Shown here: positions 12,730-54,800 of the stretch, one piece after another
Position numbering within the stretch: position 1 is the stretch's first letter
How the letters are laid out: the number at the start of each line of letters is the position of its first letter
Virus record (IMG/VR): IMGVR_UViG_3300042384_001469
Origin: an uncultured virus (IMG/VR IMGVR_UViG_3300042384_001469)
Lineage: Duplodnaviria; Heunggongvirae; Uroviricota; Caudoviricetes
Strand: one strand, 5' to 3'
DNA: 64,000 bases
The notes under the pieces: model-generated
Seen by the model: only the letters and a program-made list of their open reading frames with translations
Told to the model about the DNA's origin: nothing
The model's database searches: none
Translations under genes and position numbers: made by a program

Positions 12730-13569
12730 TCAATAATTCATAATTAACAATTCCTCACCCATATTTTGTGATTTTCCTTTTTTAGCAGCGGCTGCCTTAG
12801 CAAATTCTTTTTTCTCCCATTTATATTGACTTTCAGGAAACCAAGTGTGTAATAGTTCAAAATCATAATACGATAGTGAAAATTTTCCTTGTATATTTTT
12901 TAAAGAATTCGCAAGACGCTCATGGTCATCTCTATCAAAATCATGGTTTGAGTAATAATTTTCAGTTTTCCAATATGGAGGGTCAAGATAAAAATATGTA
13001 GTAGGACTATCAAATTCTTTAATAACATTTTCAAAGTCACCTAATCTGAAATGACTTATTTTATTAAAATGCTCAACCCATTCAGGTTTAGATAATTTAT
13101 CTCTGAATGTAAGATATTTTGATTTGTATTTACCTTTTAAATCAATAAATGAACTTGTTTCTGGTTTTGAACCACTGAATACCTGAGTTAAAACATAAGC
13201 GTACTTAGCAGCGATATCATAGTCAGGGTAATTAATTGCAAATCCCTCCCCAAATATTTCTTTTTGAAAATCCTGAAACTGTTCTTTGTAAATTGGTGGG
13301 GTCACTTCCTCTCCTTTTTCCTGACAGGGAATTCTATTCACCGCAGATAAAAGAACTTCGGGATTTTGAAGACACATAAACAAATTGTAATTAAGTGGAT
13401 TAAAGTCGTTATAAACAACTCGTTTAAGATTTGGAAATTGTTTTAAGTCCATATTAAAGAAACACCAAAACATCCCTCCAAAAGTCTCCACATATGTTTC
13501 CATATCTTTTGGGTAAAACGGAACAATCCATTTACCAATTTTACTCTTACCTCCAATATATGATAGCAT
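12730..13569 (-). CDS. Dam/D12-class (alpha) N6-adenine DNA methyltransferase
   Basis: YIGGKSK, ETFGG, YND, YLDPPY. Confidence 0.9.
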   Translation of the reverse strand: MLSYIGGKSKIGKWIVPFYPKDMETYVETFGGMFWCFFNMDLKQFPNLKRVVYNDFNPLNYNLFMCLQNPEVLLSAVNRIPCQEKGEEVTPPIYKEQFQDFQKEIFGEGFAINYPDYDIAAKYAYVLTQVFSGSKPETSSFIDLKGKYKSKYLTFRDKLSKPEWVEHFNKISHFRLGDFENVIKEFDSPTTYFYLDPPYWKTENYYSNHDFDRDDHERLANSLKNIQGKFSLSYYDFELLHTWFPESQYKWEKKEFAKAAAAKKGKSQNMGEELLIMNY

Positions 13570-14474: not shown

Positions 14475-17400
14475 ATGGCCGATATTAAAAACCAATTAAT
14501 TAAAGATTCTTATAATTACGTCTTACAATCTGACTTATCAACAGGTATTGTTTATCGTATCGGTGGAGCCATTCCTGTTAATCCAATCTTTTTATCGGGA
14601 CTTACTATAAATAGTGGATTTACGTATTCTAATGGAACTGAACAAAATGGTTATGTATTAACTTGTGATGCTTCAGGTAACGCCAATTGGGGTCCTGCTG
14701 GAGGAACAACAGGTGTATATCTTCCGTTAAGTGGTGGAACTGTATCGGGGGGGACTATATTCCAAAGTGGACTAACTGCTAACACAATTTCAGCAACAAC
14801 TTATCAGAATTTACCAACCGATGTTTATGTTACAGGAGGAACTTATACAAATGGAGAAATTACCTTTTTAAATAATACAGGAGGAACTTTTACGGTTACT
14901 GGACTTCCAATAGGAGGACCTGGAGGTCAAGTATATTATTTAAATTTATCAAACTCACAACCACCATATAGAGAATTTAGTCCAAGTGGAACAACAAATT
15001 CACAACAAATAACGGCTGTTACAATTAACAATGGAGTAACTAGTACGATTACCTCATTTCAAACACCAACTGGATATCCAAACGCATCTCTAATACCTGC
15101 AGGATATTGGAGCTTTTATCTTCATTCTTTCAAACAAAATAGTAACGCATCTTTTGATATATTCTGTGAGGTTTATTTAAGAACCACAGGGGGAACCGAA
15201 ACTCTACTTGTTACAACTGACCCGGCTCCAGTAACTACAAATTCCCCAAATCCATCAATGCAATTAACGGACGGATATTATTCGGGTTCATCAATAAATA
15301 CAACTGACAGAATTGTTGTAAAAGTAAGAGCAACGAATACTAGTAATCAATCACATTCAATAACTTTAGTCACTGAAGGTACCCAACATTATTCTTATGG
15401 AATAACACCATTTTCAGACAATTCGGCTTTGACTTGTGGTACATTAAGCGGATGTTCAATAATTCAAACAATTCAAACCGATATAAGTAATAAATTTGAT
15501 AAAAGTGGTGGAACTATTAATGGCAACTTAACCGTAACAGGAAATACTTCACTACAAGGATTAACTGCAACTACAATATCTGCAACCACATATCAAAACT
15601 TACCATCATCATTTCAATCTGTAAGAATTAGTGGTACCACACAATTCTCCGCAAATACTGGAACTTTTATAAATTTTAGTGGTGTTAATATATCAATTAC
15701 TTCAGCGTCAACAAATACATTAGTTTTTAGTGGGTCACCTCAGTTCACGGTGCCAGGTTCAAACAATCAGGTTTTAACATCTGATGGTAGTGGAGGCGCA
15801 GTTGCAGAATCATTGTTAACATTTGATGGTGCCGCAACCTCACCAACGTTGAATGTGAATGGTGTTCGTGTTGGTAGAGGTAATTTTAACGTATGTACTA
15901 ATATATCAATTGGTGGTGTTGCATTTAGTGGAGTGGCTCCTGGAGGGAATAACATTGCGATAGGACAACAGTCACAAACAAGTAATCTTGGACAAGGTAA
16001 TACATCAATTGGGTATAAGTCTTTAAGAAGTAAAACCATAGGTGATTTTAACATATCCTTAGGTCATAAATCTATGTCCAGTTCTCAATCAGTATGTTAT
16101 GGCCTGAATTACAATATATCCATTGGATATAAAAATATGTACCAAGCATGTGGGAATAATAACATATCTATGGGGAGTTCTTCTCTTTATAATATCTCTC
16201 AATGTATGTTTGGAAATATTGCAATTGGTGATAAATCATTACGTGAGGGGACTAGTATTTCTCGTAATATTGGGATAGGTACTAATTCTTTAAAAAAGTT
16301 GTCTACAGGTTATTGTAATATCGGTATAGGTGATTATGCGTTATATGGTTACGGATGTTCAATTAGTTTTTCTCGTAACATTGCATTGGGTTTCAAAAGT
16401 CAAAAAAATAAATGTGCAGGTGATGATAATATTTCCTTAGGTGTTACATCATTGTATTGTAATCCCAACGGTTCCAAGAATATTGCAATTGGGACTAATG
16501 CTATAAGACAAAACTCGAATTGTTTAACAAGTGGTATTGGTAATATTGGAATCGGATATGATTCTTTAAGAAACAATACTTCGGCTTCAGACCATAACAT
16601 TGCAATTGGTCAGGCGGCATTGTATTACAATACAGGAGCACAAGGACCAAAACCTGATTTTAACGTTGCAATTGGTAGGTGTTCAATGTTAAATAATAAT
16701 AATGGTTGTGAAAATATTGCAATTGGTAGAAGAGCTTTGATGAGTAATTCAGGATGTTATTCCAACCAAGGTTGTGGTAATGTTGCGTTAGGTAGAGGTA
16801 CAATGGCCAACAATTTTACGGGTAATTATAATATTGCAATAGGTAGAAGTTCTTTATATAGTAATACTACAGGTGTACACAACATTGCGTTAGGTAGAAA
16901 TTCAGGTGGAGAAATTACAACAGGTAGTAACAATATTTCATTAGGATATAACTCATTATACTATACAAGTACAGGTAGAGACAACATTGCAATTGGTAAT
17001 CAGGCGTTATGTTATAATACTGATGGGGTTAGAAATATTGCGATAGGTTATCAATCACTTCGTAAATCGGACAAAAAATCTGATAATATAGCAATTGGGC
17101 CCAATACATTACATGATTGGGTTGGTGGTGAAAGTAGACTATCAAATATTGCAATCGGATTGAATTCCCTATATGGTGGTACAACAAACTCAGGAGCGCC
17201 GTACTACACAACAAATTACTCAAAATTTTCAGGTAATATTGCGATAGGGCAAGAATCTCAATCTTGCAACTATTATGGAAATTTAAATGTGAGTTTAGGA
17301 CATAATACTCTCACTTTTAATGTATATGGCAGTGAAAATGTTGCAATAGGTAGTGGTGCTCTATATAGGGCTAATGGAGGTAATAATAACATTGCAATAG

Positions 17401-17858
17401 GGACTAAATCAATTGGTTATACTGGTCCAGTACCTGTTGGAAATCACAACATTGCTATTGGATATTATAGTTTTGGAAGAACGTCTTGCGGTGGTAGTTA
17501 TAATATTCTTTTAGGTCTTAAATCAATGTATGGAAGTAATGGTGGTTCTCATAATATTGGATTGGGCTATTGTGTTTTATTTTCTAACTATGGACAATCA
17601 AATATTGCACTTGGATATAAATCATTATATCAAAACACCTCAGGGTACCGAAATATTGCAATTGGTAATAATACAAATTCAGGAAATTATAATTATTCAA
17701 TTATTCTTGGTGGTTATGCTACGGCAACTGGAAATAATCAATTTGTTGTAGGTAGTTCCTCAATTCCTATTGGTACTATAACAACTGAGTCGTGCAGTTC
17801 CTCAAGGACTTGGGAAATAAGAATTAACGGAAATTCTTACAAAGTTTTATTAGCTTAA
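14475..17858 (+). CDS. Tail fibre/adhesin with many NIAIG beta-helical (trimeric-autotransporter-head-like) repeats
   Basis: 1127 aa, G/S/T/N-rich; about 40 N(I/V)(A/S/G)(I/L)G repeats; YLPLSGGT and FDKSGGTINGNL fibre motifs. Confidence 0.8.
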   Translation: MADIKNQLIKDSYNYVLQSDLSTGIVYRIGGAIPVNPIFLSGLTINSGFTYSNGTEQNGYVLTCDASGNANWGPAGGTTGVYLPLSGGTVSGGTIFQSGLTANTISATTYQNLPTDVYVTGGTYTNGEITFLNNTGGTFTVTGLPIGGPGGQVYYLNLSNSQPPYREFSPSGTTNSQQITAVTINNGVTSTITSFQTPTGYPNASLIPAGYWSFYLHSFKQNSNASFDIFCEVYLRTTGGTETLLVTTDPAPVTTNSPNPSMQLTDGYYSGSSINTTDRIVVKVRATNTSNQSHSITLVTEGTQHYSYGITPFSDNSALTCGTLSGCSIIQTIQTDISNKFDKSGGTINGNLTVTGNTSLQGLTATTISATTYQNLPSSFQSVRISGTTQFSANTGTFINFSGVNISITSASTNTLVFSGSPQFTVPGSNNQVLTSDGSGGAVAESLLTFDGAATSPTLNVNGVRVGRGNFNVCTNISIGGVAFSGVAPGGNNIAIGQQSQTSNLGQGNTSIGYKSLRSKTIGDFNISLGHKSMSSSQSVCYGLNYNISIGYKNMYQACGNNNISMGSSSLYNISQCMFGNIAIGDKSLREGTSISRNIGIGTNSLKKLSTGYCNIGIGDYALYGYGCSISFSRNIALGFKSQKNKCAGDDNISLGVTSLYCNPNGSKNIAIGTNAIRQNSNCLTSGIGNIGIGYDSLRNNTSASDHNIAIGQAALYYNTGAQGPKPDFNVAIGRCSMLNNNNGCENIAIGRRALMSNSGCYSNQGCGNVALGRGTMANNFTGNYNIAIGRSSLYSNTTGVHNIALGRNSGGEITTGSNNISLGYNSLYYTSTGRDNIAIGNQALCYNTDGVRNIAIGYQSLRKSDKKSDNIAIGPNTLHDWVGGESRLSNIAIGLNSLYGGTTNSGAPYYTTNYSKFSGNIAIGQESQSCNYYGNLNVSLGHNTLTFNVYGSENVAIGSGALYRANGGNNNIAIGTKSIGYTGPVPVGNHNIAIGYYSFGRTSCGGSYNILLGLKSMYGSNGGSHNIGLGYCVLFSNYGQSNIALGYKSLYQNTSGYRNIAIGNNTNSGNYNYSIILGGYATATGNNQFVVGSSSIPIGTITTESCSSSRTWEIRINGNSYKVLLA

Positions 17859-17895: not shown

Positions 17896-18711
17896 ATGAA
17901 GAAAATATTTTTTAACGCATCATTACCAAGAGCAGGGTCAACATTAATTCAAAACATATTAATGCAAAATCCTGAAATTTATTCAACACCAACTTCAGGA
18001 GTGATTGAGCTACTTTTACAAGCTAGAACCATATATACAACAGGTGACGCATTTAAAGCACAAAATCCTGATGAAATGAGAGAGGGATTAAAAAGTTTTT
18101 GTGAAAAAGGTTTAACGGGTTTTTTCGATAACATAACTGATAGACCCTATGTTATTGATAAGAGTAGAGCGTGGATAGGTAACTATCATTTCTTAAAGTG
18201 GTTTTACGGGACACCTAAAATTATTTGTATGGTTAGGGACCTAAGGGCAATTTTCTCTTCAATGGAAAAAAACTATAGAAAAAATTCACATAAAGACCCT
18301 CTATTAGTAAATGTCAATGAATTAAAAAATATGACAACAACATCAAGAGTTGACCATTTTTCAATATCTCCCCCAATTGGTCCATCATTAGAATGGTTAT
18401 TTGAGTCAATTCACCAAGGATATGACAAAGATATTCTTTTTGTTAGATTTGAAGACCTAACATCAAATCCTGATAAAGAGTTAAAACGGATTTACGATTA
18501 TTTGGAGATACCTTTTTATCAACACGACTTTAATAATATTGAGCAGTTAACTATTGAAAATGATGTCATACACGGAATTTTTGGTGACCACTCAATAAAA
18601 AATACATTATCTCAACCAAAAGAAGATTATAACGAAATATTAGGTGCTGATAATAGTAATAGATTATACGAACACTATAATTGGTTCTTCAATAAATTTA
18701 ATTATAAATAA
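17896..18711 (+). CDS. PAPS-dependent sulfotransferase (paralog 1)
   Basis: 5'-PSB loop SLPRAGSTL, DKSR, 3'-PB VRDLRAIFSS, RFEDL. Confidence 0.88.
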   Translation: MKKIFFNASLPRAGSTLIQNILMQNPEIYSTPTSGVIELLLQARTIYTTGDAFKAQNPDEMREGLKSFCEKGLTGFFDNITDRPYVIDKSRAWIGNYHFLKWFYGTPKIICMVRDLRAIFSSMEKNYRKNSHKDPLLVNVNELKNMTTTSRVDHFSISPPIGPSLEWLFESIHQGYDKDILFVRFEDLTSNPDKELKRIYDYLEIPFYQHDFNNIEQLTIENDVIHGIFGDHSIKNTLSQPKEDYNEILGADNSNRLYEHYNWFFNKFNYK

Positions 18712-18716
18712 GCTTT

Positions 18717-18974
18717 ATGGAAAACGATGAAATACCAAACCCAACTAAATCAATTAATTCAGCCTTTAATTCGGTGACACTAATAAATGGAATTATTGAT
18801 GGTTCTAAATTACCAACAGAAAAAATTGAAGTTAAAAAAACTACAGTCGAGAGAAATTACAAACATTTAGAAGTTATGAAAAGTAAAGATTGGTTTATGT
18901 CAGCATTAACTGAAACTCAATTAACGGAAATAAACGATACGATTCAATCAGGTAAAACTTATACACAACTATGA
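18717..18974 (+). CDS. Small phage protein of a type often found next to tail fibre genes
   Basis: SVTLIN...VERNYKHLEVM..KDW...I..GKTY pattern recalled from fibre-adjacent phage ORFs. Confidence 0.55.
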   Translation: MENDEIPNPTKSINSAFNSVTLINGIIDGSKLPTEKIEVKKTTVERNYKHLEVMKSKDWFMSALTETQLTEINDTIQSGKTYTQL

Positions 18975-19399
18975 TTTATTGGTTCACAGGTCAACCTGGC
19001 TCAGGAAAAACAACATTGGCGAATGCTTTAATTGAGAAGTGTTCAGATAATTGTATTAATGTTGATGGAGATGGTTTGAGGGAGTTATTTCAAAACTTTG
19101 ATTATTCACCTGAAGGTAGAATTAAAAATATCCAATCTGTTGTTGATTTGGCTCGTTTTTTAGACCACAAGGGATTTACAGTTGTAATTTCTGTTGTTGC
19201 TCCTTATAAAAGAATGAGGGACTCATTAAAAGAAACTAATGAAGTTTGTGAAATCTATGTTCACACAAGTGAAATCAGAGGTAGAGAACAAAACTTTGTT
19301 AAGGAGTATGAACAACCAACTGAAAACTTTATTGATATTGACACAACAAATAAAACTATAGACGAATGTCTTGATTTAATACCTTTTAATAAAAAATGA
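18971..19399 (+). CDS. cysC: Adenylyl-sulfate (APS) kinase
   Basis: WFTGQPGSGKTT, DGDGLR, DYSPEGRIKN, VVAPY..R, YEQP. Confidence 0.88.
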   Translation: MIYWFTGQPGSGKTTLANALIEKCSDNCINVDGDGLRELFQNFDYSPEGRIKNIQSVVDLARFLDHKGFTVVISVVAPYKRMRDSLKETNEVCEIYVHTSEIRGREQNFVKEYEQPTENFIDIDTTNKTIDECLDLIPFNKK

Positions 19400-19794
19400 G
19401 TAACTGGGATAAAAAAGTTCACGTTCAGTCATCTTTGAAACCAAAAGATGGACAATTTGCAATGTTTGTCGGTAGATGGCAACCACTACATAAAGGACAC
19501 CAAGAGTTATTTAAACAAGCGATGGATGAAGGTAAGAATGTATTGATTTGTATCAGAGACATTGAACCTGATGAAAAAAATCCATTCACCGCTCAAGAAG
19601 TTAAGAGTAATATTGAGTCACACTATTCTGAATTGAGTGATAGAGTTAAAGTGATGGTAATACCTGATATATGTTCAATAGAATTTGGTAGAGGTGTTGG
19701 GTATGATATTATTGAAAGAATTCCCCCTCAAGAAATACACGATATTTCTGCAACTAAAATAAGAGAACAAATGAAATTGGAAGGTAAACTATGA
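19396..19794 (+). CDS. HxGH nucleotidyltransferase (cytidyltransferase-like), candidate minimal ATP sulfurylase
   Basis: GRWQPLHKGH, NPF, GRGVGY, ISATKIR; overlaps cysC. Confidence 0.75.
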   Translation: MSNWDKKVHVQSSLKPKDGQFAMFVGRWQPLHKGHQELFKQAMDEGKNVLICIRDIEPDEKNPFTAQEVKSNIESHYSELSDRVKVMVIPDICSIEFGRGVGYDIIERIPPQEIHDISATKIREQMKLEGKL

Positions 19795-20234
19795 AAAAAA
19801 TTAAAACATTTCAAATAAGATTTAACACTCACTCAACTAATGAATGTGATAGATGGAGATTGATTGAGAATGGTTCTGAAATTTTAGTTTCTGATATTGT
19901 TGTTGATGGTCACACTTATACTACTAAAGACTGGATACCTGAATTAAACGAATATAAATGGCATATCAGTTGTGAGGGTCACTGTGAGATTAAAAACACT
20001 GTAGCATATATAACAACAGTTAAACAAGAATCGGTATTAACCAGACATATTTTAAAAACAATATCTTACAGAATTTTAGGTACTTTAATTACCGTAGGAG
20101 TTGCGTACTCATTGGGGGCATCAATTGAGTTATCATCGTTATTAGGTGTGGGAGAATTGTTACTTAAACCAATTGTTTATTTCTTCCACGAAAGAGTATG
20201 GTATAAATTTATAAGAATTGGTTCTAAAAATTAA
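19791..20234 (+). CDS. DUF2061 membrane protein with an extra N-terminal domain
   Basis: RHILKTISYRILGT...KPIVYFFHERVW. Confidence 0.75.
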   Translation: MKKIKTFQIRFNTHSTNECDRWRLIENGSEILVSDIVVDGHTYTTKDWIPELNEYKWHISCEGHCEIKNTVAYITTVKQESVLTRHILKTISYRILGTLITVGVAYSLGASIELSSLLGVGELLLKPIVYFFHERVWYKFIRIGSKN

Positions 20235-20235
20235 T

Positions 20236-21114
20236 ATGGAAAAATATATTGTTTGGCACATACAGGGAGGATTGGGTAAAAACATTGCCGCCACGTCTCT
20301 ATTAACATCATTAAAAGAGAAATACGAAGACAGAAAAATTGTAGTAGTCGCCTCATACCCTGAAGTATTCTTAAACCATTCTTCAGTTTATAGAGTATAC
20401 AAATTAGGTACCACTCAATATTTTTATGATGATTATATTAAAGATAAAGACACAATAATCTTTCGACAAGAACCATATTATCAAACAAATCATATACTTA
20501 AAAAATCACATCTAATTGAAAATTGGTGTGACTTACTCGGGATTGAGTATACCAATCAAACACCAAGTATTAGTTTAAATATTTCTCAAAAACGTTCATT
20601 GTCTAAATGGCAAAGAGAAAAACCAATATTACTCATTCAAACAAATGGGGGCGCGTTTAATTCAAATCAATCTTATTCATGGACCAGAGATATCCCATTT
20701 GATGTGTCATCATCAATTGCTAATAAATTTAGTGAAACACACCATATAATTCAAATTTGTAAAAAATCATCAAGACAACTTCCAAATGCCGAAGTTATTG
20801 ATTATGAATTGTCCGCAGTTGATTTATGTTTAATCATTTTATCATCAGACAAAAGGGTGTTAATTGACTCATGTTTACAACATGCTGCGGCAGCTCTAAA
20901 TCTTAAATCTAATGTTATATGGGTAGGAACATCACCAAATAATTTTGGATATAGTATACATAATAATATATCACCAAAGTTACCAACTGATACAGTTAAG
21001 TTAATTGACTCATATCTTTTTGACTATTCATTTGAAGGTCCAAATCATGAATGTCCTTATATGTCTATTGACGAAATGTTTGATATTAATAAATTGATTA
21101 GTTTGGTAAATTAA
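20236..21114 (+). CDS. GT-B fold glycosyltransferase, GT9-like (paralog 1)
   Basis: GGLGKNIAAT, IDSCLQHAAAALN..VIWVGTSP..FGY. Confidence 0.72.
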   Translation: MEKYIVWHIQGGLGKNIAATSLLTSLKEKYEDRKIVVVASYPEVFLNHSSVYRVYKLGTTQYFYDDYIKDKDTIIFRQEPYYQTNHILKKSHLIENWCDLLGIEYTNQTPSISLNISQKRSLSKWQREKPILLIQTNGGAFNSNQSYSWTRDIPFDVSSSIANKFSETHHIIQICKKSSRQLPNAEVIDYELSAVDLCLIILSSDKRVLIDSCLQHAAAALNLKSNVIWVGTSPNNFGYSIHNNISPKLPTDTVKLIDSYLFDYSFEGPNHECPYMSIDEMFDINKLISLVN

Positions 21115-21595: not shown

Positions 21596-21739
21596 ATGAT
21601 ACAAAATACTCCAAAATGTAAAGCATGTGCAAAAATCAACGATTATAAACCATGGTTAATAATGTTTCAATTATTCAGTTTATCCATGTTTATATGGGGT
21701 TGTGTTGAATGTACAAAATGGATTTTATCCTTCTTTTAA
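21596..21739 (+). CDS. 47-aa membrane peptide with two CxxC motifs
   Basis: Hand translation [47 protein letters not shown]. Confidence 0.5.
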
Positions 21740-22654
21740 TTTTTTGTATTTAAAATTAAATTTTATATACAAGTCACTAACTTCTCTGTAAAAACCTTTA
21801 CCTTTAACCCGTAAAGGTTTTTTTGTTTCTAAATCAATCGGAAAATCAATTTGTAAATTTCCGTTAGGATGTGGAATGGTAATTTTATCATCGTTAAGAT
21901 TTTCGATAGTAAAATCATAGTTATAAACTAAATCAGGTCCTATTTTCTCGAAGTTATTTTCAGGGACAACCTCAACTTTAAATAATAAATCACCGTATGA
22001 ACCATTAGCATAGTCACCACCTCCATGTGATTTAAAGAAAGTACCGTCATCAACTCCACTTGGTAACTCAATATCGATGTTTTGCATTTTTACCATAGTT
22101 GTATTACCATTACAAGAATAACAAGCCTTAGTGTATTTAAAACCTTTACCGTTACAAGCCTGACAAGTAGTTTTATGTACAGTTTGGAAAAATCCATTCC
22201 CAACTCTCTGTATGAAAAACCCTTGTCCCTGACACGATTTACAGTTTTCTTTGTCCCCACCAGTACCATAACAAACATCACATTTGTCATGTCTCATATA
22301 GTTAACTTTTTTTCTTCCACCTTTATACGCCTCAAAAATACCAACTTTTAAATTAACAATTTTATCGGGATTTTTTCTTTGAGCTCCCCCCATGTTATTA
22401 AACATATTTGAAAACATACTGAATGGGTCAAAACCATCCCCTCCACCACCAAATGGATTGTTTCTCTGTGAATCATACTGTTGTTTTTTTTCAGAGTCAC
22501 CTAAGGTCTCATACGCTTCGGAAATTTTTTTAAATGTTTCCTCATTCCCACCTTTATCAGGATGGTGTTGTACTGCTAATTTTTTATAAGCCTTTTTAAT
22601 ATCTTCTTGTGTGGAATTTTCTGAAACTCCTAAAACATTATAATAATTCTCCAT
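21725..22654 (-). CDS. dnaJ: DnaJ chaperone
   Basis: J domain HHPDK, G/F region, CxxCxGxG zinc repeats, C-terminal domain. Confidence 0.93.
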
Positions 22655-29977: not shown

Positions 29978-30778
29978 TCAGATATAATCGAACAACGATG
30001 AACTCTCATTACGTAACTTACGTAGAGCCTTTTCTTTAATCTGTCTAACTCTTTCTTTAGTTAGATTGAAATCTGAACCGATATCCTCTAATGTTCTAGG
30101 TGTACCTGAAATTCCATAATAGTCCTCAACAATTTGTTTTTCTCTTTCATCTAATATGTTTAGTATATTAACTAAACCATCTCGTAATTGTTGTGAAGTA
30201 TTGAATACTTCGTCAGGTCTCATAGAATCCTTATTCTCAATCAAATCAATTAAAGTATCCCCCTCTTCATTGATTTGAGTCTCTAAGTTAATAGTGTATG
30301 GTAAGTTGGCGAATTTATCCTCCATTCTACCGTCAGTTTTTTCAACTCTCTTTTTTTCTTTATGTAGGTCTTGAACAACGTTAACGGGTATACGAATAGT
30401 TCGTGAATGTTCGTTAAGAGACTGTAGAATTGATTGTCTAACCCACCAAACTGCGTAAGAAATAAATCTTAAATTTTTAGACCAATCAAAATTATTCAGA
30501 GCTTTCATCAATCCAATATTACCTTCCGCAACCAAATCAGGAAAATCAACTCCTTGATTTTGGTACTGTTTTGCAACTGTAATGACAAAACGTAAATTAC
30601 CTTCTAAAATTTCCTTCTTAATTGACTCTTTTTGTTTTTCTGAAATGTTTTCAGATTGCATTATTTTTGATAACTCCCTTTCTCTTTCAGGTGTCATCAC
30701 TTTAATTTTCCTAATGTCTTTTAAGTAAAAACTAACTTCGTCTTGATTAATTGGAATTACAGATTGTTTATTTATCAT
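29978..30778 (-). CDS. RNA polymerase sigma-70 factor, RpoD/SigA family lacking region 1.1
   Basis: YLKDI, NLRFVITVAKQYQNQG, DLVAEGNIGLMKA, RFISYAVWWVRQSI, TLEDIG..LTKERVRQIKEKALRKLR. Confidence 0.93.
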   Translation of the reverse strand: MINKQSVIPINQDEVSFYLKDIRKIKVMTPERERELSKIMQSENISEKQKESIKKEILEGNLRFVITVAKQYQNQGVDFPDLVAEGNIGLMKALNNFDWSKNLRFISYAVWWVRQSILQSLNEHSRTIRIPVNVVQDLHKEKKRVEKTDGRMEDKFANLPYTINLETQINEEGDTLIDLIENKDSMRPDEVFNTSQQLRDGLVNILNILDEREKQIVEDYYGISGTPRTLEDIGSDFNLTKERVRQIKEKALRKLRNESSSLFDYI

Positions 30779-30785
30779 GTTTAAT

Positions 30786-31307
30786 TTATTTTGAGTATTC
30801 ATTTAATAATTTGATTTCGTTTTCAGTTAATGAGTCAATACCTGATTCATTTATCTTGTCCAATAATTGGTCCAAAGTAGGTACTTCAACAGGTATTGTC
30901 TGTGGTTTAAATAATACACTAAACAGTTTTTCCATAGAATCACTGATATCACTATCCCCAAACTTAGGTATGTCAGTCATATCAATTGTAAAATTTGTGA
31001 CTTTATTGTCTGACTTTTTGTCAGTTTCACCAAATAAATGACTATGAATGTCCTCATCCATAGAAAGAATCATATTATCATTTACAGGAAAAACAAAAAA
31101 CATTGCGGTCAATTTAGTTATTGATTCTTCAAAAAATTTACTAATTCCATCAGTATCCAATGAAGTTTCAAAGTTAACTATTATCCCAGCGTCTCCATAT
31201 TGGTACCTTACGTCTTTTTTAGATATTTGTGAGACACAATCAATTATTAATTTAATGTGAGGCTCAGTTTCCTTGTAATCCCCAAAAGCAAAAAGTATAT
31301 ATTCCAT
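30786..31307 (-). CDS. Hypothetical protein
   Basis: C-terminal LDQLLDKINESGIDSLTENE; TATATTTG at 31328-31321. Confidence 0.65.
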   Translation of the reverse strand: MEYILFAFGDYKETEPHIKLIIDCVSQISKKDVRYQYGDAGIIVNFETSLDTDGISKFFEESITKLTAMFFVFPVNDNMILSMDEDIHSHLFGETDKKSDNKVTNFTIDMTDIPKFGDSDISDSMEKLFSVLFKPQTIPVEVPTLDQLLDKINESGIDSLTENEIKLLNEYSK

Positions 31308-45329: not shown

Positions 45330-47303
45330 TTACCCTCCAAAAAATTGTTGACCTAAATTAACTGAAACTTGAACTATGTCATTACCTATCGATACTGTTG
45401 AACAAGGTGCGTTATAAAGTTTTATGTTTCTTAATTGGTATTTCAATAAGTATTCATACTTTTTATTACAAGGAAATACACCATTTGGTTTATTACCTAT
45501 TAGTATTGAATGATTGAATGATAAATCGTATGTATCGGTACTAATCATTTGTAGACCATTATACATATCAACATCTAATACAATTGTTTTACCTGATAGG
45601 GCTCCTTTACATCCCGCTAATGGGAAATTAGTAATACTCTGAGGTTGTACCACAGGTGTCTGTAATATTGAATTTTTTTCAACTGAATTACTTGTTCCCC
45701 AATTATAATAGTCTGAAGAATTATATTGAGGTGATTGGGTTATTTGACTTGTAAAACTTAAATCAAATTCAACAATAACACCGCTAGGTAATGATGGAGT
45801 GATTGTAATTTGTGCTAATCTACCATTTGTAATAGTTGTAGTATATATCGAAGATGGATTAGATGTCCAATTTGTAGTTGTGTAGTTCCCTGTTGGGTTA
45901 CCAACAAAATTAACACTTATAACATAATTTTGATTTGCAATTTGTGGTACTGTTACACCAACATTAGATGTATTACTGTTATTATCCATAACATACAACG
46001 TGTAATTTCCTGATACCAAATTATTAAATAATGGAGAATTTTGATAAGTAATGTTATCAATTGAATATGTATACGGTGAAGAACCTCCGTTCGCAGTTGA
46101 TAAAATACTTCCATTGTTAGTACACGCACCGTTAGCCGTATATGTCAATGCCAATGGTTGAGACGAACAAGTACCCTCAGTTACTATAACTGGTCCATTT
46201 ACTGTATTTCCAGCACCTAAGAATGTCCAACCATTATTAGGTATCGATGACGTTGTTGTTGTCCTTAATTGAGGAGTTTGGCTACCACACATTACTAATC
46301 CAATGAATTCCCAATAACTACCATTATGTAATATGAAATATTGTCCATCTTCAGAAATCCAAGAGTAATGAGAATTGTATGTTCCATTATTAATAAATGT
46401 AATCAAATATGACTGTTCACAGTATGTAAATGACATACATAGATTTGGAATTACAGGATTACTTCCCACACTTCTTGATGGAGTCATAGTTGGCGTAGTG
46501 GTAGGAGTAGTGGTCGGTGTAGGTGTCGGAGCATAAAATCCACAAGTAGTTGTGGATGAGAAATCTCCGTAATAATCTGTAACCACCGCAGTATAAAATC
46601 CATAACTAACATTATTTAAAGTTTGTGAAGTTTGACCATTAGACCACTGTATTGTATATGGTGGTGTACCTCCTGTTATAAATAAAGATAATATACCGTC
46701 ACTTGATGTTGAGGTACTTGGTTCTTGAACTGTCTGACATTGTACCTCCATTGGATAAATGGTAATAATATCACATTCATTTCTACCTGTAATACGTAAA
46801 CTTGCGGTTATTTCAGGATATGGAGTTCTAGATACTGAAACAGTTGGTGTTATTGTCGGAGTGACCGACATTGTAGGTGTGACAGTTGGAGTTCTTGTAA
46901 CAGTTGGGGTCGGTGTAAATCCCATACTTTTAGTTGGGGTAGCCGTTCTTGTTGGTGTTGGAGTTTTTGTTTTTGTTGGTGTTGGAGTTTTTGTTTTGGT
47001 AGGGGTTAAAGTAGGAGTTCTTGTAACCGTAGGTGTTGGGGTTGGGGATGTTGCACAACAAAATCCAGGAGCTTCGGAACAATTATTAAGTCCATTTAAA
47101 ACTATTTCCGCAGTATCCGCACCATAATCATAACCTGAAGATGATGGACCTATTAAATTTTCAATTACAAAACAAAAACTTGGTCCTTCAACAGTATTAA
47201 TATACCACATCTCACCAACCTGTCCTCCACTTGGCATGTTGATGATATATTGAGCTCCGTCACAACAACTAACAACTAAATAATTATATGGTGGTACAAA
47301 CAT
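45330..47303 (-). CDS. Virion surface protein with Cys-Cys module, Pro/Thr linkers and SprB-like repeats
   Basis: GGTPPYTIQWSNGQT..YTAVVTD; GGSSPYTYSID..GNYTLYVMD. Confidence 0.7.
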   Translation of the reverse strand: MFVPPYNYLVVSCCDGAQYIINMPSGGQVGEMWYINTVEGPSFCFVIENLIGPSSSGYDYGADTAEIVLNGLNNCSEAPGFCCATSPTPTPTVTRTPTLTPTKTKTPTPTKTKTPTPTRTATPTKSMGFTPTPTVTRTPTVTPTMSVTPTITPTVSVSRTPYPEITASLRITGRNECDIITIYPMEVQCQTVQEPSTSTSSDGILSLFITGGTPPYTIQWSNGQTSQTLNNVSYGFYTAVVTDYYGDFSSTTTCGFYAPTPTPTTTPTTTPTMTPSRSVGSNPVIPNLCMSFTYCEQSYLITFINNGTYNSHYSWISEDGQYFILHNGSYWEFIGLVMCGSQTPQLRTTTTSSIPNNGWTFLGAGNTVNGPVIVTEGTCSSQPLALTYTANGACTNNGSILSTANGGSSPYTYSIDNITYQNSPLFNNLVSGNYTLYVMDNNSNTSNVGVTVPQIANQNYVISVNFVGNPTGNYTTTNWTSNPSSIYTTTITNGRLAQITITPSLPSGVIVEFDLSFTSQITQSPQYNSSDYYNWGTSNSVEKNSILQTPVVQPQSITNFPLAGCKGALSGKTIVLDVDMYNGLQMISTDTYDLSFNHSILIGNKPNGVFPCNKKYEYLLKYQLRNIKLYNAPCSTVSIGNDIVQVSVNLGQQFFGG

Positions 47304-49746: not shown

Positions 49747-50571
49747 CTACATATTTTTAGGGTACTTAAAAATCTCGTTATACCACCCATAATTATTATA
49801 AATCCAATCACAAATATCTGAACCTAAAATTTTTTGAGCATCCGATGGTAATAACTCTAAAGTCTTTTTTATCTTATGGTCCCCAAAAATACCATACACT
49901 TCATCATCTTCTTTTGTTATTTGTTCAATGTTTTCAAAATCATGTTCAAAATAAGGTATTTCAAAATATTCATAAATTTTTCTCATGATTAAATCGGGAT
50001 ACAAACATAAATCCTCATACTTAACAAACATCATATTTTCATTAATACCTTGTCTGAAAATTTCTTGTAGTCTTTCAATCGCCATACCAACAGGTTGTGA
50101 GTTTGCCCATATGTCTATTCTTTTAGGTGTTGATGTTCCTTTCAAATCCGAATGATTTACAATCCCAAAATCTTTGTGCTGATTTTTTCTAAAGTTTTTT
50201 TCCATAGAGGTATAGATATCTCTAAGGTCTCTCACCATACAAACAACTTTTGGTTTATCAACAATTTGTTGTAAAAATCCATAATGGACACCCCATCCTC
50301 TACTTTTATCAACCACATATTTTTTATCAGTAATACTTTCATAAAAACCAGTTAACCCCTCTTTACAAAAAGATAAAAATGCGTTTTTCATAAGTTCAGG
50401 GTCCTGAGCTTTGAATTCAGGTGAATTACTATAGTTTGCTCTAGCCGCGTACACTAACTCTAAAACACCACTTGTTGGTGTTGCGTATATGTCAGGGTTT
50501 TGAGCTAAAATGTTTTGTAGTAGAGTACTACCTGCTCGTGGTAGTGAACTCTGAAAAAATAATCTTTCCAT
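49747..50571 (-). CDS. PAPS-dependent sulfotransferase (paralog 2)
   Basis: SSLPRAGSTL, DKSRGW, VRDLRDIYTSMEK, KYEDL. Confidence 0.88.
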   Translation of the reverse strand: MERLFFQSSLPRAGSTLLQNILAQNPDIYATPTSGVLELVYAARANYSNSPEFKAQDPELMKNAFLSFCKEGLTGFYESITDKKYVVDKSRGWGVHYGFLQQIVDKPKVVCMVRDLRDIYTSMEKNFRKNQHKDFGIVNHSDLKGTSTPKRIDIWANSQPVGMAIERLQEIFRQGINENMMFVKYEDLCLYPDLIMRKIYEYFEIPYFEHDFENIEQITKEDDEVYGIFGDHKIKKTLELLPSDAQKILGSDICDWIYNNYGWYNEIFKYPKNM

Positions 50572-50573
50572 TT

Positions 50574-50960
50574 TTAATATATTTTTTTTACTGATTCCCA
50601 ATATTCTTTTTTTCCATATGATGTACAAATTTCTTCACCTGGCTCAATATCTTTAACCGCAATAAAATAATACATTCCATTATCTGAATCACATGTCCAT
50701 GTTGCATTATTATCATCACTATGATTGTAAATACACCCATACCCAAGAGGTATTGCGTACTTTATTGGAGATGCCCCACAAGGATATGAGAAACGATATT
50801 TTAGTAATATATCATCGTTTGACCCTAAATCTGTTTTGAAAAAAATTGAATAACAGGTTTCAATTATTTCATCTTTTAATATTTTTTCAATCGCGAAAAC
50901 CCCAAATCCGTGAATTGGGGACGATTTCACTTCAATTTTATTTGGTATCGGGATGTTCAT
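50574..50960 (-). CDS. SET-domain protein-lysine methyltransferase
   Basis: SPIHGFGVFA, YNHSDDNN, DIEPGEEICTSYG. Confidence 0.88.
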   Translation of the reverse strand: MNIPIPNKIEVKSSPIHGFGVFAIEKILKDEIIETCYSIFFKTDLGSNDDILLKYRFSYPCGASPIKYAIPLGYGCIYNHSDDNNATWTCDSDNGMYYFIAVKDIEPGEEICTSYGKKEYWESVKKIY

Positions 50961-51828
50961 TGTTACTTAAAGAATTTAATATGTTCTCAATGTCAAACAT
51001 TTCAAACTCATCATTATATGGGAATTCCAAAGGTTCTCCCATTATGTTAAACTTGTTTAAATATGACATTTTTAATTCTGGTTTTTTTGTGAATTGGTTT
51101 GAAACAATATTTTTATTTGTTTCATATCCAAATACTTTTGGTGAGTTAACAATCCACAAAACTGTGGATTCTAATTTTAGAGCTCCCGCAACATGTTGAC
51201 CAAAACTATCCATAAAAAATCTTTTATTACTTATCGCAATTAAAGTTGCAACTGACCTAAAAGTATCAGTGACAGGGATTGTATTAGCGAAAGATGGTTG
51301 GTCTTCTCTTTTCAGGTGAAAAATAGTGTAACCATATTTAAATTTTTCAATCACACTTTCAACAATATGGAATGGAATGTCACGAGCCCAAGAGTATTTC
51401 AAATTTTGTTCAACCCCTCCATTAGTTTGAATAACCATGATTGGTTTATCAGTTGTGTATTTTCTTGAAAAGAAATTAATCTCTCTCTCAGTTAGATATA
51501 TGTTTGGTTGTTCACCATTATATTCTAAATCAAATAGTTTACACCAAGTTTCAATTAAATGTTCTGTTTTATTAATATGGTTAGTTTCAAGGTATGGGTC
51601 ATGAGCCAAAAGTTTGAATTCTTTATCTTCAATATAGTCAGAATAAAAATAAGAATGTTCACCAAAATTAAACGCTCGGTCAACATGTGGATTGTTTAAG
51701 AAAACATCAGGATATCCTGAGACAACAATAAGTTTAGAATTTGGGTATTTTTTTTTAATTACTTCGGTAACTGCGGTTGCCAAAATACATTTACCTATAC
51801 CACCATTAATTTGGAAAATTATATTCAT
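50938..51828 (-). CDS. GT-B fold glycosyltransferase, GT9-like (paralog 2)
   Basis: GGIGKCILAT, MDSFGQHVAGAL..VLWIVNSPKVFGY. Confidence 0.72.
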   Translation of the reverse strand: MNIIFQINGGIGKCILATAVTEVIKKKYPNSKLIVVSGYPDVFLNNPHVDRAFNFGEHSYFYSDYIEDKEFKLLAHDPYLETNHINKTEHLIETWCKLFDLEYNGEQPNIYLTEREINFFSRKYTTDKPIMVIQTNGGVEQNLKYSWARDIPFHIVESVIEKFKYGYTIFHLKREDQPSFANTIPVTDTFRSVATLIAISNKRFFMDSFGQHVAGALKLESTVLWIVNSPKVFGYETNKNIVSNQFTKKPELKMSYLNKFNIMGEPLEFPYNDEFEMFDIENILNSLSNNEHPDTK

Positions 51829-51852
51829 AATCAAAGCTTTGATTAAAATATA
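51828..51852 (-). promoter_or_regulatory. 18-bp palindrome TAATCAAAGCTTTGATTA between a TATATT element and the ATG
   Basis: Palindrome 51828-51845; TATATT at 51852-51847. Confidence 0.5.
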
Positions 51853-51865
51853 AAATATGTATTAG

Positions 51866-54800
51866 TTATTGTGAAGATGAATTTTTAAGTAATTCAATTT
51901 CTTTTTCAAGTTTTTCAACTCTTAATATTGTTTCTTGTAATGATTTAACTGTTAGAGATAAAATACCATCATAATCTAGTCCGTATGTTCCGTCTTCTTT
52001 TTCACCATCGCCAAGCACTAATTCAGGGTATGCAATAAGTACATCTTGTGCTACAAAACCGTGTCTTGTTGTACCACTATAATCTTTATATTCAAATTTA
52101 ACAGGTTTTAGATTTAAAATATGTGGTGTGATTTCATCATTAATATACTGAACATTTATTTTTCTTCTTAAATCGGATGTTCCACCTCCTGGTGTACTTA
52201 ATACTCCGGCATCCGTAAGTGAGAGTATAATTGTACCATAAGTGCTGTTAACGACTTCAAGTCCTCCTGTACCATTCACTCTAAAAGTTTTATTTGGGTT
52301 TGTTGCACCTCCTGAGTTATTGGTAACTCTAATAAAATCTATGTAACTAGCGCCTCCGACTGTTCCACTTCCACAAAATGTGGTTAACGCTCCTACGGAA
52401 CTACCGCTTATAGTTATACTTCCTTTTGTTCCTGAAATAGTACCAACAGAACCGCTAAAACTTGGAGAGTTAACTGAAGTGGTTCCACAAAAATTATTAG
52501 AATAGAATGTACATGCCACAGAAGCGGTTAATCCACATCCAGCAGCGAATGAAAAATTAGACGACACAGTATTTCCACTACCTCCAACAATACCACTAAA
52601 TTGACCTGTAACCGAATTACACCCTCCTCCACCAACAAATGAATTTAAATTAGATATCCTATTACAGAATCCACCATTAATTACTGAACAATCACTACCT
52701 GAAGTAACCGCATTACAAATACCACCACCAATAAATGAGTATGAAGTATGACCAGAATTATTAGCACCTCCTAAAACAGATGTTGAGAATAAACAAGAAA
52801 TATTATTTAAACCTCCTCCTAATACTGAATAACACCCATTTGATATCCCTTGATACCCCCCTCCTAAAAACGCAAAGTCACAACACGCAGAATTTTTAAA
52901 CCCTCCACCAATTGTCGTACTTTGTCCTGAAATAACATTACATTGTCCTCCACCAATAAAAGAATAAGAACAACAACTTCTATTACATTGTCCTCCACCA
53001 ATAAATGACCAAGCACCTATTGTACAATTTAATTCACCTCCAACTACAGTAACATAATTACCTGTAAGTCCTGAGTTTCTAAGACCACCACCTATAAATC
53101 CTGCAACACTTGAATTAGTATTCAAACATCCCCCGCCAATAGTTGAATATTTACTACTTGAGGTGTTACCACATCCTCCTAAAACCGCACTATAACCTCC
53201 AGAAACAGTATTTGAAATCCCACCTAAAATAGATGAATAAGAACCAGTATTAATAGTATTCCCTCTTCCACCAACAATTGAAGAATAGCTTGATGATACT
53301 GTGTTACAAGCTCCCGCACCAATAAATGATGTCCCACCACTATTAGAGTTACAACTTCCAGCACCTATAAATGAATTACCTCCTGAACCAATATTACAAC
53401 ATCCTCCAACAACAGTAATTAAAAATGTAGAAACGTTAGCACTTATAATATTACAACACCCACCACCAATAAATGAAGATGGTCTTGAAACTATATTATT
53501 TCTATTACCACTTACAATAGTAGAATAACAACCACTATTAGTATTACCACTTCCAACAAGTATTGAGCCGTAATATGCTAAATTACAAATACAGTTACCA
53601 ATTCCATTAACAACAGTTGAGTAACACGCATTTAATGTATTACCACTACCATTACCCACAAATGACCAATCAGCATTGTTATAATTACAATAACCGTTAA
53701 CAACCGTTGACCCGCTTCCTGTCGTATTATTTTGAAATCCATTTCCAATAAATGAAAAAGTTCCTGATGATTGAGTTACAGCACCTGATGGTGAAAATAC
53801 TAAATTGTTCCAATCAGGTGTACCTCCACAAGTTCCGTTACCAAAACCACTACCAATAAATGACCAAACACCTGTCAAATTTTTAGCTGCCCCACATATT
53901 CTGTTTGATGTCCCTCCACCAATAAACGAATGAGATGAAAAACAAATAATATTACTATTTCCATTTATTATTGATGTATAACCCGACGTTGTAACATTAT
54001 TATGACCTCCCATAACATGACTACCATTACCAACAAAACCGTAAGTCACATTATTAATCTGATGTCCAAATCCATTAATAACAGTGGTCGCGTAACTACC
54101 ACAAACAAAACTATTAGTACCTCCAATAATTTGATTATAAGAACATCCTTTATCATTACCATCAATAATTTGAGAGCAATTGGTGTTCATTTGTAATGAA
54201 AAAGTATTACGCCAAATACAAGATGATGTTGAATTACCGATTAAATTTGAGTCCCCACAAATCCATCCCCCACATTTACCAACGTTTCCATTATTACTTA
54301 TTATTGTTGAGTGTGAACCACATATAATACTTCCCCCATAGGTAAATCCTTTACCGGCATTAATAATTGCGGAATAATTACCACTTATAGTATTAGAGTT
54401 ACCATTACCTATATAAGAGCTACACCCCGAAACAATATTGTTATAACCATTAGAAATGAATGACCCTGTTGTGTTTGCTGATAATGTATTACCACTACCA
54501 TTACCTATAAATGAGTATGTTGACGTATTAATTGTATTACCACTACCATTAATAATACTTGAAAAACAAGAGGTTTTACCACATATGTTATTCAAACATC
54601 CATTAGTGATGGTGTTAAAAGAAGCTCCTTGTGATAAATTACATATACCATTAATTACACTACCATATCTTGATGAGACAGTATTACCAATACCGTTACC
54701 AATTAATGATGAAACAGACGATGAGGTATTTCCGGTACCATTAATAATTGAACCATAGATATTACTAGCGGTATTGTTCCTACCACCCCCTATAAAACTA

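Follow-up and report, generated by a model that had tools for sequence, protein, structure and literature searches.

Can a protein of only 132 residues synthesize adenosine 5'-phosphosulfate (APS) from ATP and sulfate? This question is raised by a locus on a 64,000-nucleotide stretch of DNA from an uncultured virus of the Caudoviricetes (IMG/VR record IMGVR_UViG_3300042384_001469), the whole of which was analyzed and is henceforth referred to as the window. At positions 19396–19794 of the plus strand the window encodes a small HxGH nucleotidyltransferase (NTase), placed between a gene for a short kinase resembling APS kinase (CysC) and a gene for a protein with a DUF2061 domain. An initial annotation, made from the sequence letters, proposed that the NTase is a minimal ATP sulfurylase acting with the adjacent CysC-like kinase, and comparative genomics supports that proposal through gene fusions, a near-obligate pairing with the kinase and the replacement of CysDN. 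The textbook sulfate-activating enzymes are of two kinds, Sat and CysDN. On these sequence comparisons it is quite probable that the NTase is a minimal ATP sulfurylase (ATP + sulfate -> APS + pyrophosphate (PPi)) that was recruited from a NadM-type HxGH enzyme and not from Sat or CysD. The results given below establish the existence of the gene and its fold class, the residues that are conserved, the pattern of fusions and neighborhoods, and the replacement of CysDN in bacteria.

Pairing with APS kinase and relation to CysDN

The open reading frame (ORF) at 19396–19794 (+) was confirmed to encode 132 residues with the motifs GRWQPLHKGH and ISATKIR. As annotated, it overlaps the cysC-like gene and lies beside the DUF2061 gene; the kinase/NTase and NTase/DUF2061 junctions are both stop-start overlaps with the sequence ATGA. 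The NTase was matched by 7536 proteins (90%-identity clusters) at E <= 1e-3, and at 50% identity the family comprises 1288 clusters, 498 of which match at E <= 1e-10. An AlphaFold2 model of the protein consists of one domain, with a mean predicted local distance difference test score (pLDDT) of 93.7 and a predicted template modeling score (pTM) of 0.85. Given the number of matches and the confidence of the model, the NTase is a real gene and not a chance ORF.

Natural fusions between the NTase and CysC, for which the initial annotation had suggested a search, exist in both domain orders. When the 60 longest of the 150 best 50%-identity NTase representatives were scanned with Pfam, an APS_kinase domain was found fused to the NTase in 36, with the kinase N-terminal in 25 and C-terminal in 11. 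Some of these fusions contain a full-length, high-scoring CysC domain (P0156, 9.5e-69; P0267, 2.2e-57), and one fused protein (P0159) is labeled at NCBI as coming from an Acidobacteriota metagenome-assembled genome (MAG). PHROG 10255 is a kinase-first fusion present in cultured phages of Xylella, Xanthomonas and Stenotrophomonas. The fusions of phage Salvo (L001, 4578–5324) and phage DLP6 (L002, 4623–5354) are located among DNA-metabolism genes (MazG, topoisomerase, ligase). Apart from APS kinase, the NTase was fused to DUF2061 (one protein, P0173), DUF6717 (one) and methyltransferases (two), and a few of the fusions resemble assembly chimeras. From the fusions only, we infer that the kinase and the NTase may be physically associated.

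The pairing extends to unfused genes. A set of 160 viral and metagenomic loci, reduced to 147 unique ones, none of them below 52% identity to the query and most of them phage-type, was scored with hidden Markov models built for this analysis. An APS-kinase-like gene was present upstream, within 1 kb and on the same strand, in 116 of the 117 loci with at least 900 nt of upstream sequence, and in 83 it was directly adjacent. DUF2061 followed the NTase in 83 of 123 eligible loci, and a sulfotransferase was found in 37 of the 63 loci with 3 kb on both flanks.

The phage kinase scored 68 bits against PF01583 (cut-off 21.1), covering profile positions 4–111 of 152, and 77.6 bits against TIGR00455 (cut-off 138.7), with about 18 residues of the lid absent. 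A profile of 40 phage kinase homologues searched against the PDB retrieved APS kinases and the kinase domains of synthases of 3'-phosphoadenosine 5'-phosphosulfate (PAPS) first (8a8h, 4.1e-19). The P-loop, the DGD motif, R37, R50 and N53 are retained, and G12-K13, D32/D34, R37 and R50 are invariant. A two-repeat DUF2061 protein (L186:7110-7514 (+)) is encoded upstream of CysC-CysD-CysN-CysQ in a Flavobacteriales genome, and DUF2061 is fused to APS kinase in P0279; the gene downstream of the phage NTase is thus a member of sulfate-activation operons as well. DUF2061 might act as a membrane anchor or in the uptake of sulfate. In the same set of 40 phages, conservation is much higher in the NTase than in the kinase, with a mean column identity of 63% compared to 48% and with 30 invariant columns compared to 16.

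Bacterial genomes offered a comparison between the NTase and CysDN. A contig scan with exact peptides of the phage NTase returned only 3 loci. In two loci from Flavobacteriales MAGs (L005, L006), a full-length CysC is immediately followed by an NTase homologue of 43–49% identity, and the genes downstream of it encode a phosphatase resembling CysQ, a flippase and a sulfotransferase. A phyletic test was then made on 251 sampled Flavobacteriales genomes, using a threshold of E <= 1e-30 for CysD. The NTase was found in nine genomes, every time immediately downstream of a full-length CysC, while CysC was present in 113 genomes, CysD in 168 and Sat in none. CysD was detected in all 104 genomes that are CysC-positive and NTase-negative and in none of the nine that are NTase-positive. 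The lone sub-threshold match to PF01747 among the nine (G002) was rejected as a Sat candidate, being NadD encoded beside guanylate kinase.

No PAPS_reduct-family gene was found in the five NTase-positive genomes tested for it. These five bacteria thus appear, from their gene content, to lack both CysD and CysH and to make PAPS for sulfation only. NadD scored over its cut-off in all five NTase-positive genomes tested and CoaD in three; since these bacteria have their own NadD and CoaD, the NTase is not the housekeeping adenylyltransferase for nicotinamide adenine dinucleotide (NAD) or coenzyme A (CoA).

Seven of the bacterial loci (L017–L023) share a syntenic order, namely SprA-GcvH-TonB, CysC-NTase, CysQ, Wzx, two or three sulfotransferases, Wzy and an epimerase. 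Within the same frame, which is that of a polysaccharide-sulfation locus, CysC-CysD-CysN is found in L187 and CysC-NTase in L017, L018, L020 and others. This pattern is the one expected of non-orthologous displacement of CysDN by the NTase. No other candidate for making APS was seen in the clusters that contain an APS kinase, a CysQ-like phosphatase for 3'-phosphoadenosine 5'-phosphate (PAP) and sulfotransferases. A DeoC/LacD-like aldolase and one or two aldehyde dehydrogenases are encoded between the NTase and CysQ in four of the loci (L018:8722-11996, L019:9192-12418, L021 and L022).

Motifs, fold and likeness to sulfate-activating enzymes

The NTase scored above the cut-off of two models only, PF01467 CTP_transf_like (33.6 bits, cut-off 21) and TIGR00125 (35.2 bits, cut-off 27.7), both of which describe the HxGH superfamily in general. 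The motifs of that superfamily are present as H32-K-G-H35 in the N-terminal part and I117-S-A-T-K-I-R123 in the C-terminal part. In an alignment of 57 sequences H32 and R123 are invariant, and H35, S118 and T120 are at least 90% conserved. Taking this alignment together with one of 40 sequences, the invariant or near-invariant residues are G26, R27, H32, G34, H35, R54, P63, G98, R99, G102, Y103, S118, T120 and R123. Conserved residues peculiar to the family are R54 (in IRD, at the position of GSA in NMN adenylyltransferases), N62-P63 and G98-R99-x-V-G-Y.

The model displays the Rossmann-like alpha/beta fold of the superfamily, with Z scores of 10.1 for nicotinamide mononucleotide (NMN) adenylyltransferase (NMNAT), 9.7 for phosphopantetheine adenylyltransferase (PPAT), 9.5 for NadM and 7.8 for Sat. 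Phage-type NTases carry in addition a conserved N-terminal extension (residues 1–20; window positions 19396–19455), in which H9, V10 and Q20 are nearly or fully invariant. The extension is modeled as an extra beta-strand at residues 5–10 and is lacking from the NMNAT matches, which begin only at model residue 13–20.

The initial annotation placed the catalytic domain of Sat in the same superfamily, and the fold is indeed the same: in the all-against-all VIA structure search, Thermus Sat (1v47) ranked ninth, with a Z score of 7.8 over 114 residues. Across the Sat-type and PAPS-synthase sulfurylases (PF01747; 1v47, 1j70, 1x6v, 2gks) the Z scores run from 7.8 to 5.9. Common to both groups are the HxxH and ISxTxxR-type motifs, one arginine before the histidine motif, one arginine in a later Gly-Arg loop, the proposed reaction, and fusion or adjacency to APS kinase in either order. 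In a study of human PAPSS1 (PMC11697783), docking places sulfate between an arginine just before HNGH and an arginine in a later loop. By analogy, it is proposed that R27 (before HxGH) and R99 (in the Gly-Arg loop) of the NTase correspond to this sulfate-holding pair, with R54 as a further arginine on the acceptor side.

The differences from Sat are nonetheless large. The NTase has 132 residues compared to roughly 350–570, and lacks both the N-terminal PUA-like domain and the extra C-terminal domain. Sat was absent among the best 50 Foldseek matches of the model, and in a PDB search with the 57-sequence NTase profile the sulfurylase domain of human PAPS synthase was matched at E 0.7 only. The C-terminal ISATKIR, which the initial annotation had read as a Sat-like sign, does not serve as one: ISxTxxR is common to the whole HxGH superfamily, and ISATKIR aligns with YSGTEIR of NMNAT, which makes it a superfamily motif and not a Sat-specific one.

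CysDN occupies the same operon position beside CysC, and among the CysC-bearing Flavobacteriales sampled CysDN and the NTase are mutually exclusive. The folds, in contrast, are unrelated. CysD is a PAPS_reduct-type ATP pyrophosphatase and CysN a GTPase whose GTP hydrolysis is coupled to the reaction, whereas the NTase has no GTPase partner and contains no match to the CysD family domain (TIGR02039/PF01507).

Two further systems resemble the pair in their logic. PPAT and dephospho-CoA kinase, which are fused in eukaryotic CoA synthase, have the same two folds and carry out the same two steps, in which an HxGH adenylyltransferase makes an adenylate and a P-loop kinase then phosphorylates it at the 3'-OH. 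The kinase found here, however, belongs to the APS-kinase family and not to CoaE, the NTase reached 24.4 bits against a cut-off of 103.3 for TIGR01510, and the NTase-positive bacteria have their own CoaD. The supply of PAPS for glycan tailoring, as in rhizobial NodPQ with NodH/NoeE and in Bacteroidota clusters of cysDN-cysC-cysQ-sulfotransferase, likewise places a private sulfate-activation module beside sulfotransferases, and L186 and L187 are the canonical bacterial form of such clusters. The present module differs in that an enzyme of ~130 residues would stand at the sulfurylase step and in that the module is phage-borne and beside fiber genes.

Alternative activities and the proposed mechanism

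An improbable alternative is that the NTase acts on some other small acceptor of a glycan pathway, such as a sugar phosphate, a glycerol phosphate or another alcohol phosphate, and neighbors CysC through a shared polysaccharide or fiber pathway. Such an enzyme would resemble glycerol-3-phosphate cytidylyltransferase, which is equally small, or heptose-1-phosphate adenylyltransferase. That the general models PF01467 and TIGR00125 are the sole ones passed would suit this activity, and cytidylyltransferases of similar size are among the structural matches (the cytidylyltransferase (CyTase) domain of Fom1, Z 8.0; 2b7l, 7.2; HldC, 6.3). It would also suit the surroundings, since the cassette is found among glycan genes (Wzx, Wzy, epimerase) and beside fibers, and the fusions of Salvo and DLP6 occur with no recognized sulfotransferase. 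However, it leaves unexplained why the fusions in both orders are to a bona fide APS kinase, why the pairing with the kinase is near-obligate (116/117 loci), why the NTase is found exactly in the CysC-bearing genomes that lack CysD and Sat, and why it fills the CysDN slot of a syntenic locus. No enzyme making a phosphorylated acceptor is conserved beside the NTase.

It is highly unlikely that the NTase is a true adenylyltransferase for NMN or nicotinate mononucleotide (NaMN) that rebuilds NAD in the phage or the bacterium, although NMNAT and NadM (1f9a, 1m8k, 2qjt; TIGR01527, NF002243) are its best matches in both sequence and structure. Its best NCBIfam match was archaeal NMNAT/NadM (6.1e-10), the 57-sequence profile retrieved archaeal NMN adenylyltransferases from the PDB first (1f9a, E 4.5e-16), and NMNAT came first in the structure searches (Foldseek and VIA; Z 10.1 in VIA). 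The likeness of GRWQPLHKGH to NMNAT, pointed out in the initial annotation, is borne out by GRFQPFHKGH in 1f9a, and GRxQPxHxGH, NPFTA and SxTxIR are common to both. NadM-Nudix proteins of T4-like phages were weaker matches, and family members are publicly labeled as 'cytidyltransferase-like', as 'adenylylsulfate kinase' (the fusions) or as 'putative NMNAT', the last being the automatic name of the Atlas clusters.

The NTase nevertheless scored far below the cut-offs of the dedicated models (NF002243, 39 of 127 bits; TIGR01527, 33 of 181.2 bits). The likeness is strong only over the first 70–80 residues (~80 residues in Foldseek, with a root-mean-square deviation of about 2.1 A). About 25 residues that NMNAT has between strand 4 and the ISxTxxR helix, in the C-terminal half, are missing: residues 77–109 of 1f9a (33 residues) correspond to 8 positions of the NTase profile and residues 83–129 of 4yp7 to 23. 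The missing segment is presumably the nicotinamide side of the NMNAT pocket. The invariant GR loop, the extra N-terminal strand at residues 5–10 and 'IRD' in place of 'GSA' are further differences. Unlike NMNAT/NadM, the NTase is almost always partnered by APS kinase and was never seen here with NAD genes; no NAD-salvage gene was seen among the window ORFs scanned with Pfam, and NadD is already present in the five NTase-positive bacteria tested. An NAD-forming role would also leave the association with CysC, CysQ and sulfotransferases unexplained. Being nearer to NMNAT than to Sat, the NTase probably represents, as judged from these comparisons, an independent recruitment within the superfamily.

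A non-catalytic or regulatory partner of APS kinase that binds ATP, APS or PAPS, with APS coming from the host or from an unrecognized enzyme, would account for the tight pairing and the fusions, has a precedent in the APS-kinase-like regulatory domain of fungal ATP sulfurylase and could in principle exploit the host CysDN, but is equally hard to credit, since the HxGH histidines, R27 and S118/T120/R123 are fully or almost fully conserved (57 and 40 sequences), the NTase is conserved above the kinase (63% and 48%) as expected of an active enzyme, and neither CysD nor Sat (nine genomes), nor CysH (five genomes), was found in the NTase-positive bacteria to supply APS. None of these alternatives accounts at once for the CysC fusions in either order and for the replacement of CysDN.

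Several observations weigh against assigning the NTase as an ATP sulfurylase. By sequence and by structure its nearest known enzymes are the NMN adenylyltransferases, and public automatic labels agree. The score against the ATP-sulfurylase model PF01747 was sub-threshold (17.0 bits, cut-off 24.3) and limited to 24 residues, 29–52, in the HxGH region. The signature motifs of Sat are not present as such. These motifs, QxRNPxHxxH and GRDHAG, have GRWQPLHKGH and GRGVGY as their counterparts in the NTase, so that only Pro-x-His-x-x-His and Gly-Arg are common to the two. The arginine stands five residues before the first histidine in the NTase and four in Sat, and in the later loop GRGVGY stands in place of GRDHAG. 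Because some 18 residues of the CysC lid are absent from the phage kinase, its substrate is less certain than that of bacterial CysC.

The genomic evidence has its own limits. The nine NTase-positive Flavobacteriales probably represent one or two clades, and the clean split may therefore reflect one or two evolutionary events; Fisher's test on the 9/0 and 0/104 split gave p = 1.7e-13, a value that is not a count of independent events. In 401 genomes sampled across the phylum Bacteroidota the NTase was found only in the center genome, and no further carrier lineage was added. The NTase-positive genomes are small assemblies of 1.0–2.1 Mb with unstated completeness. A SulP-type sulfate transporter, the transporter family searched for, was found in only one of five. 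Among the 63 loci with 3 kb on both flanks, 26 had no sulfotransferase within 4–5 kb. The complete genomes of Salvo and DLP6 carry the fusion yet contain no PF13469 or PF00685 sulfotransferase, so in these phages the product is used otherwise or the pair does something else.

For the favored activity as an ATP sulfurylase, APS synthesis is likely; the chemistry of the superfamily fits, and the catalytic domain of Sat has the same fold and performs the same type of adenylyl transfer. The sulfate substrate, the part played by each residue, the link with the kinase and the molecule that is sulfated are inferred, and the following mechanism is proposed for them. The HxGH and ISxTxxR motifs would bind ATP and stabilize the transition state at the alpha-phosphate, as they do across the superfamily. 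With the ancestral NMN pocket deleted, R54 (after strand 2), N62 and the G98-R99 loop (after strand 4) would hold sulfate as the attacking nucleophile. The unfavorable equilibrium would be pulled forward by the translationally coupled or fused APS-kinase-like enzyme, which would make PAPS as in PAPS synthases. The PAPS would be spent by the two fiber-adjacent sulfotransferases of the phage, on its own fibers or on a glycan of the host surface.

With almost the same degree of confidence, the family is regarded as a third type of ATP sulfurylase of ~130 residues, stand-alone and NMNAT-like in origin, dispensing with the additional domains found in Sat and with the CysDN GTPase. Such an enzyme would be common among large phages, accompanied there by a trimmed APS kinase and a DUF2061 protein and contributing to their own PAPS supply for sulfating fibers or the host surface, and it would have displaced CysDN in some streamlined marine bacteria. 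It would combine a known activity and a known superfamily with an independent minimal architecture. A full-text literature search returned no description of the NTase family or of a PAPS pathway in phages, and none that gives DUF2061 a part in sulfate activation; to judge by title and abstract, the papers in which DUF2061 appears are not about sulfate activation.

If the assignment is correct, this third kind of ATP sulfurylase would be by far the smallest, four times smaller than those known, and would demonstrate how little protein suffices for a very unfavorable reaction if APS kinase is coupled to it. A genome that has CysC and 'no sulfurylase' would cease to appear incomplete, and new names would be needed for the thousands of proteins labeled as cytidylyltransferase-like or NMNAT. 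The enzyme would also provide a compact part for the enzymatic regeneration of PAPS. For the phage, the genes would form a self-sufficient sulfation kit beside fiber genes, pointing to sulfated glycans of the virion or the host surface; to our knowledge, such glycans have so far been demonstrated for no phage.

The phage cassette and its surroundings

The NTase gene belongs to a cassette of six tightly packed plus-strand genes located directly 3' of a fiber-like gene. The features of the cassette, and of a related set of genes elsewhere in the window, are as follows.

14475–17858, plus strand: 1127-residue repeat-rich tail-fiber or tail-spike-like protein (PHROG virion structural protein/tail spike, 3.2e-61 and 1.5e-59), directly 5' of the cassette
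17896–18711, plus strand: 271-residue sulfotransferase, presumed user of PAPS (PF13469, 8.4e-18; PF00685, 7.6e-12; phrog_27463, 3.7e-40)
18717–18974, plus strand: 85-residue ORF between the sulfotransferase and the kinase, with no Pfam or PHROG match
18971–19399, plus strand: 142-residue short APS-kinase-like P-loop kinase (PF01583, 1.2e-18; TIGR00455, 9.5e-22, below cut-off)
19396–19794, plus strand: 132-residue HxGH nucleotidyltransferase, candidate minimal ATP sulfurylase (PF01467, 5.2e-8; TIGR00125 over cut-off)
19791–20234, plus strand: 147-residue protein with a C-terminal DUF2061 membrane domain (PF09834, 7e-15)
20218–21114, plus strand: 298-residue protein of unknown family, companion of the cassette (only phrog_8954, unknown function, 1.2e-7)
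49747–50628, minus strand: second sulfotransferase (PF13469, 5e-18), 51% identical to that at 17896–18711 (BLASTP 1e-106)
50938–51834, minus strand: second copy of the 298-residue protein, 40% identical to that at 20218–21114 (BLASTP 8e-71)
51866–57790, minus strand: 1974-residue giant fiber with a C-terminal endosialidase-chaperone domain (PF13884 Peptidase_S74, 5.8e-8, residues 1872–1926)

The second set runs on the minus strand in the order 1974-residue fiber, copy of the 298-residue protein, sulfotransferase. The window thus contains two sets of fiber, 298-residue protein and sulfotransferase and one set of kinase, NTase and DUF2061 protein. The 298-residue protein was present in 33 of the 63 related loci flanked by 3 kb on each side, and a sequence search of the PDB gave no match to it. 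A weak N-terminal match to NoeE was found for the window sulfotransferase.

The window has a G+C content of 31.4% and is therefore AT-rich. It encodes tail-spike and other virion proteins, the giant fiber with its endosialidase-chaperone domain, a sigma factor, DnaJ and DNA methylases, and is part of a large phage genome. The nearest virus record (G001) has 55 kb and is rated 19% complete; the window covers about a fifth of a phage genome. The initial annotation had stressed that CysD, CysN and full-length Sat are missing from the window. None of the CysD-type (PAPS_reduct), CysN-type (GTP_EFTU) or Sat domains was detected in the 48 window ORFs scanned with Pfam, and the nearest record contains no PF01747 match over the cut-off and no PF01507. 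The observation stands as such but makes a weak argument: with a record only 19% complete, little can be concluded from the lack of cysDN and sat in the window by itself.

SprB repeats, which are a motif found in the gliding adhesins of Bacteroidota, occur in two large proteins of the structural region (45330–47303 (-) and 58904–61111 (-)). Together with a related locus (L004) in a MAG labeled Sediminibacterium, they hint at a host among the Bacteroidota. Also encoded on the minus strand are a full-length DnaJ with J, Zn-finger and C-terminal domains, a sigma-70-type factor and two DNA methyltransferases (21725–22654, 29978–30802, 1268–2125 and 12730–13569).

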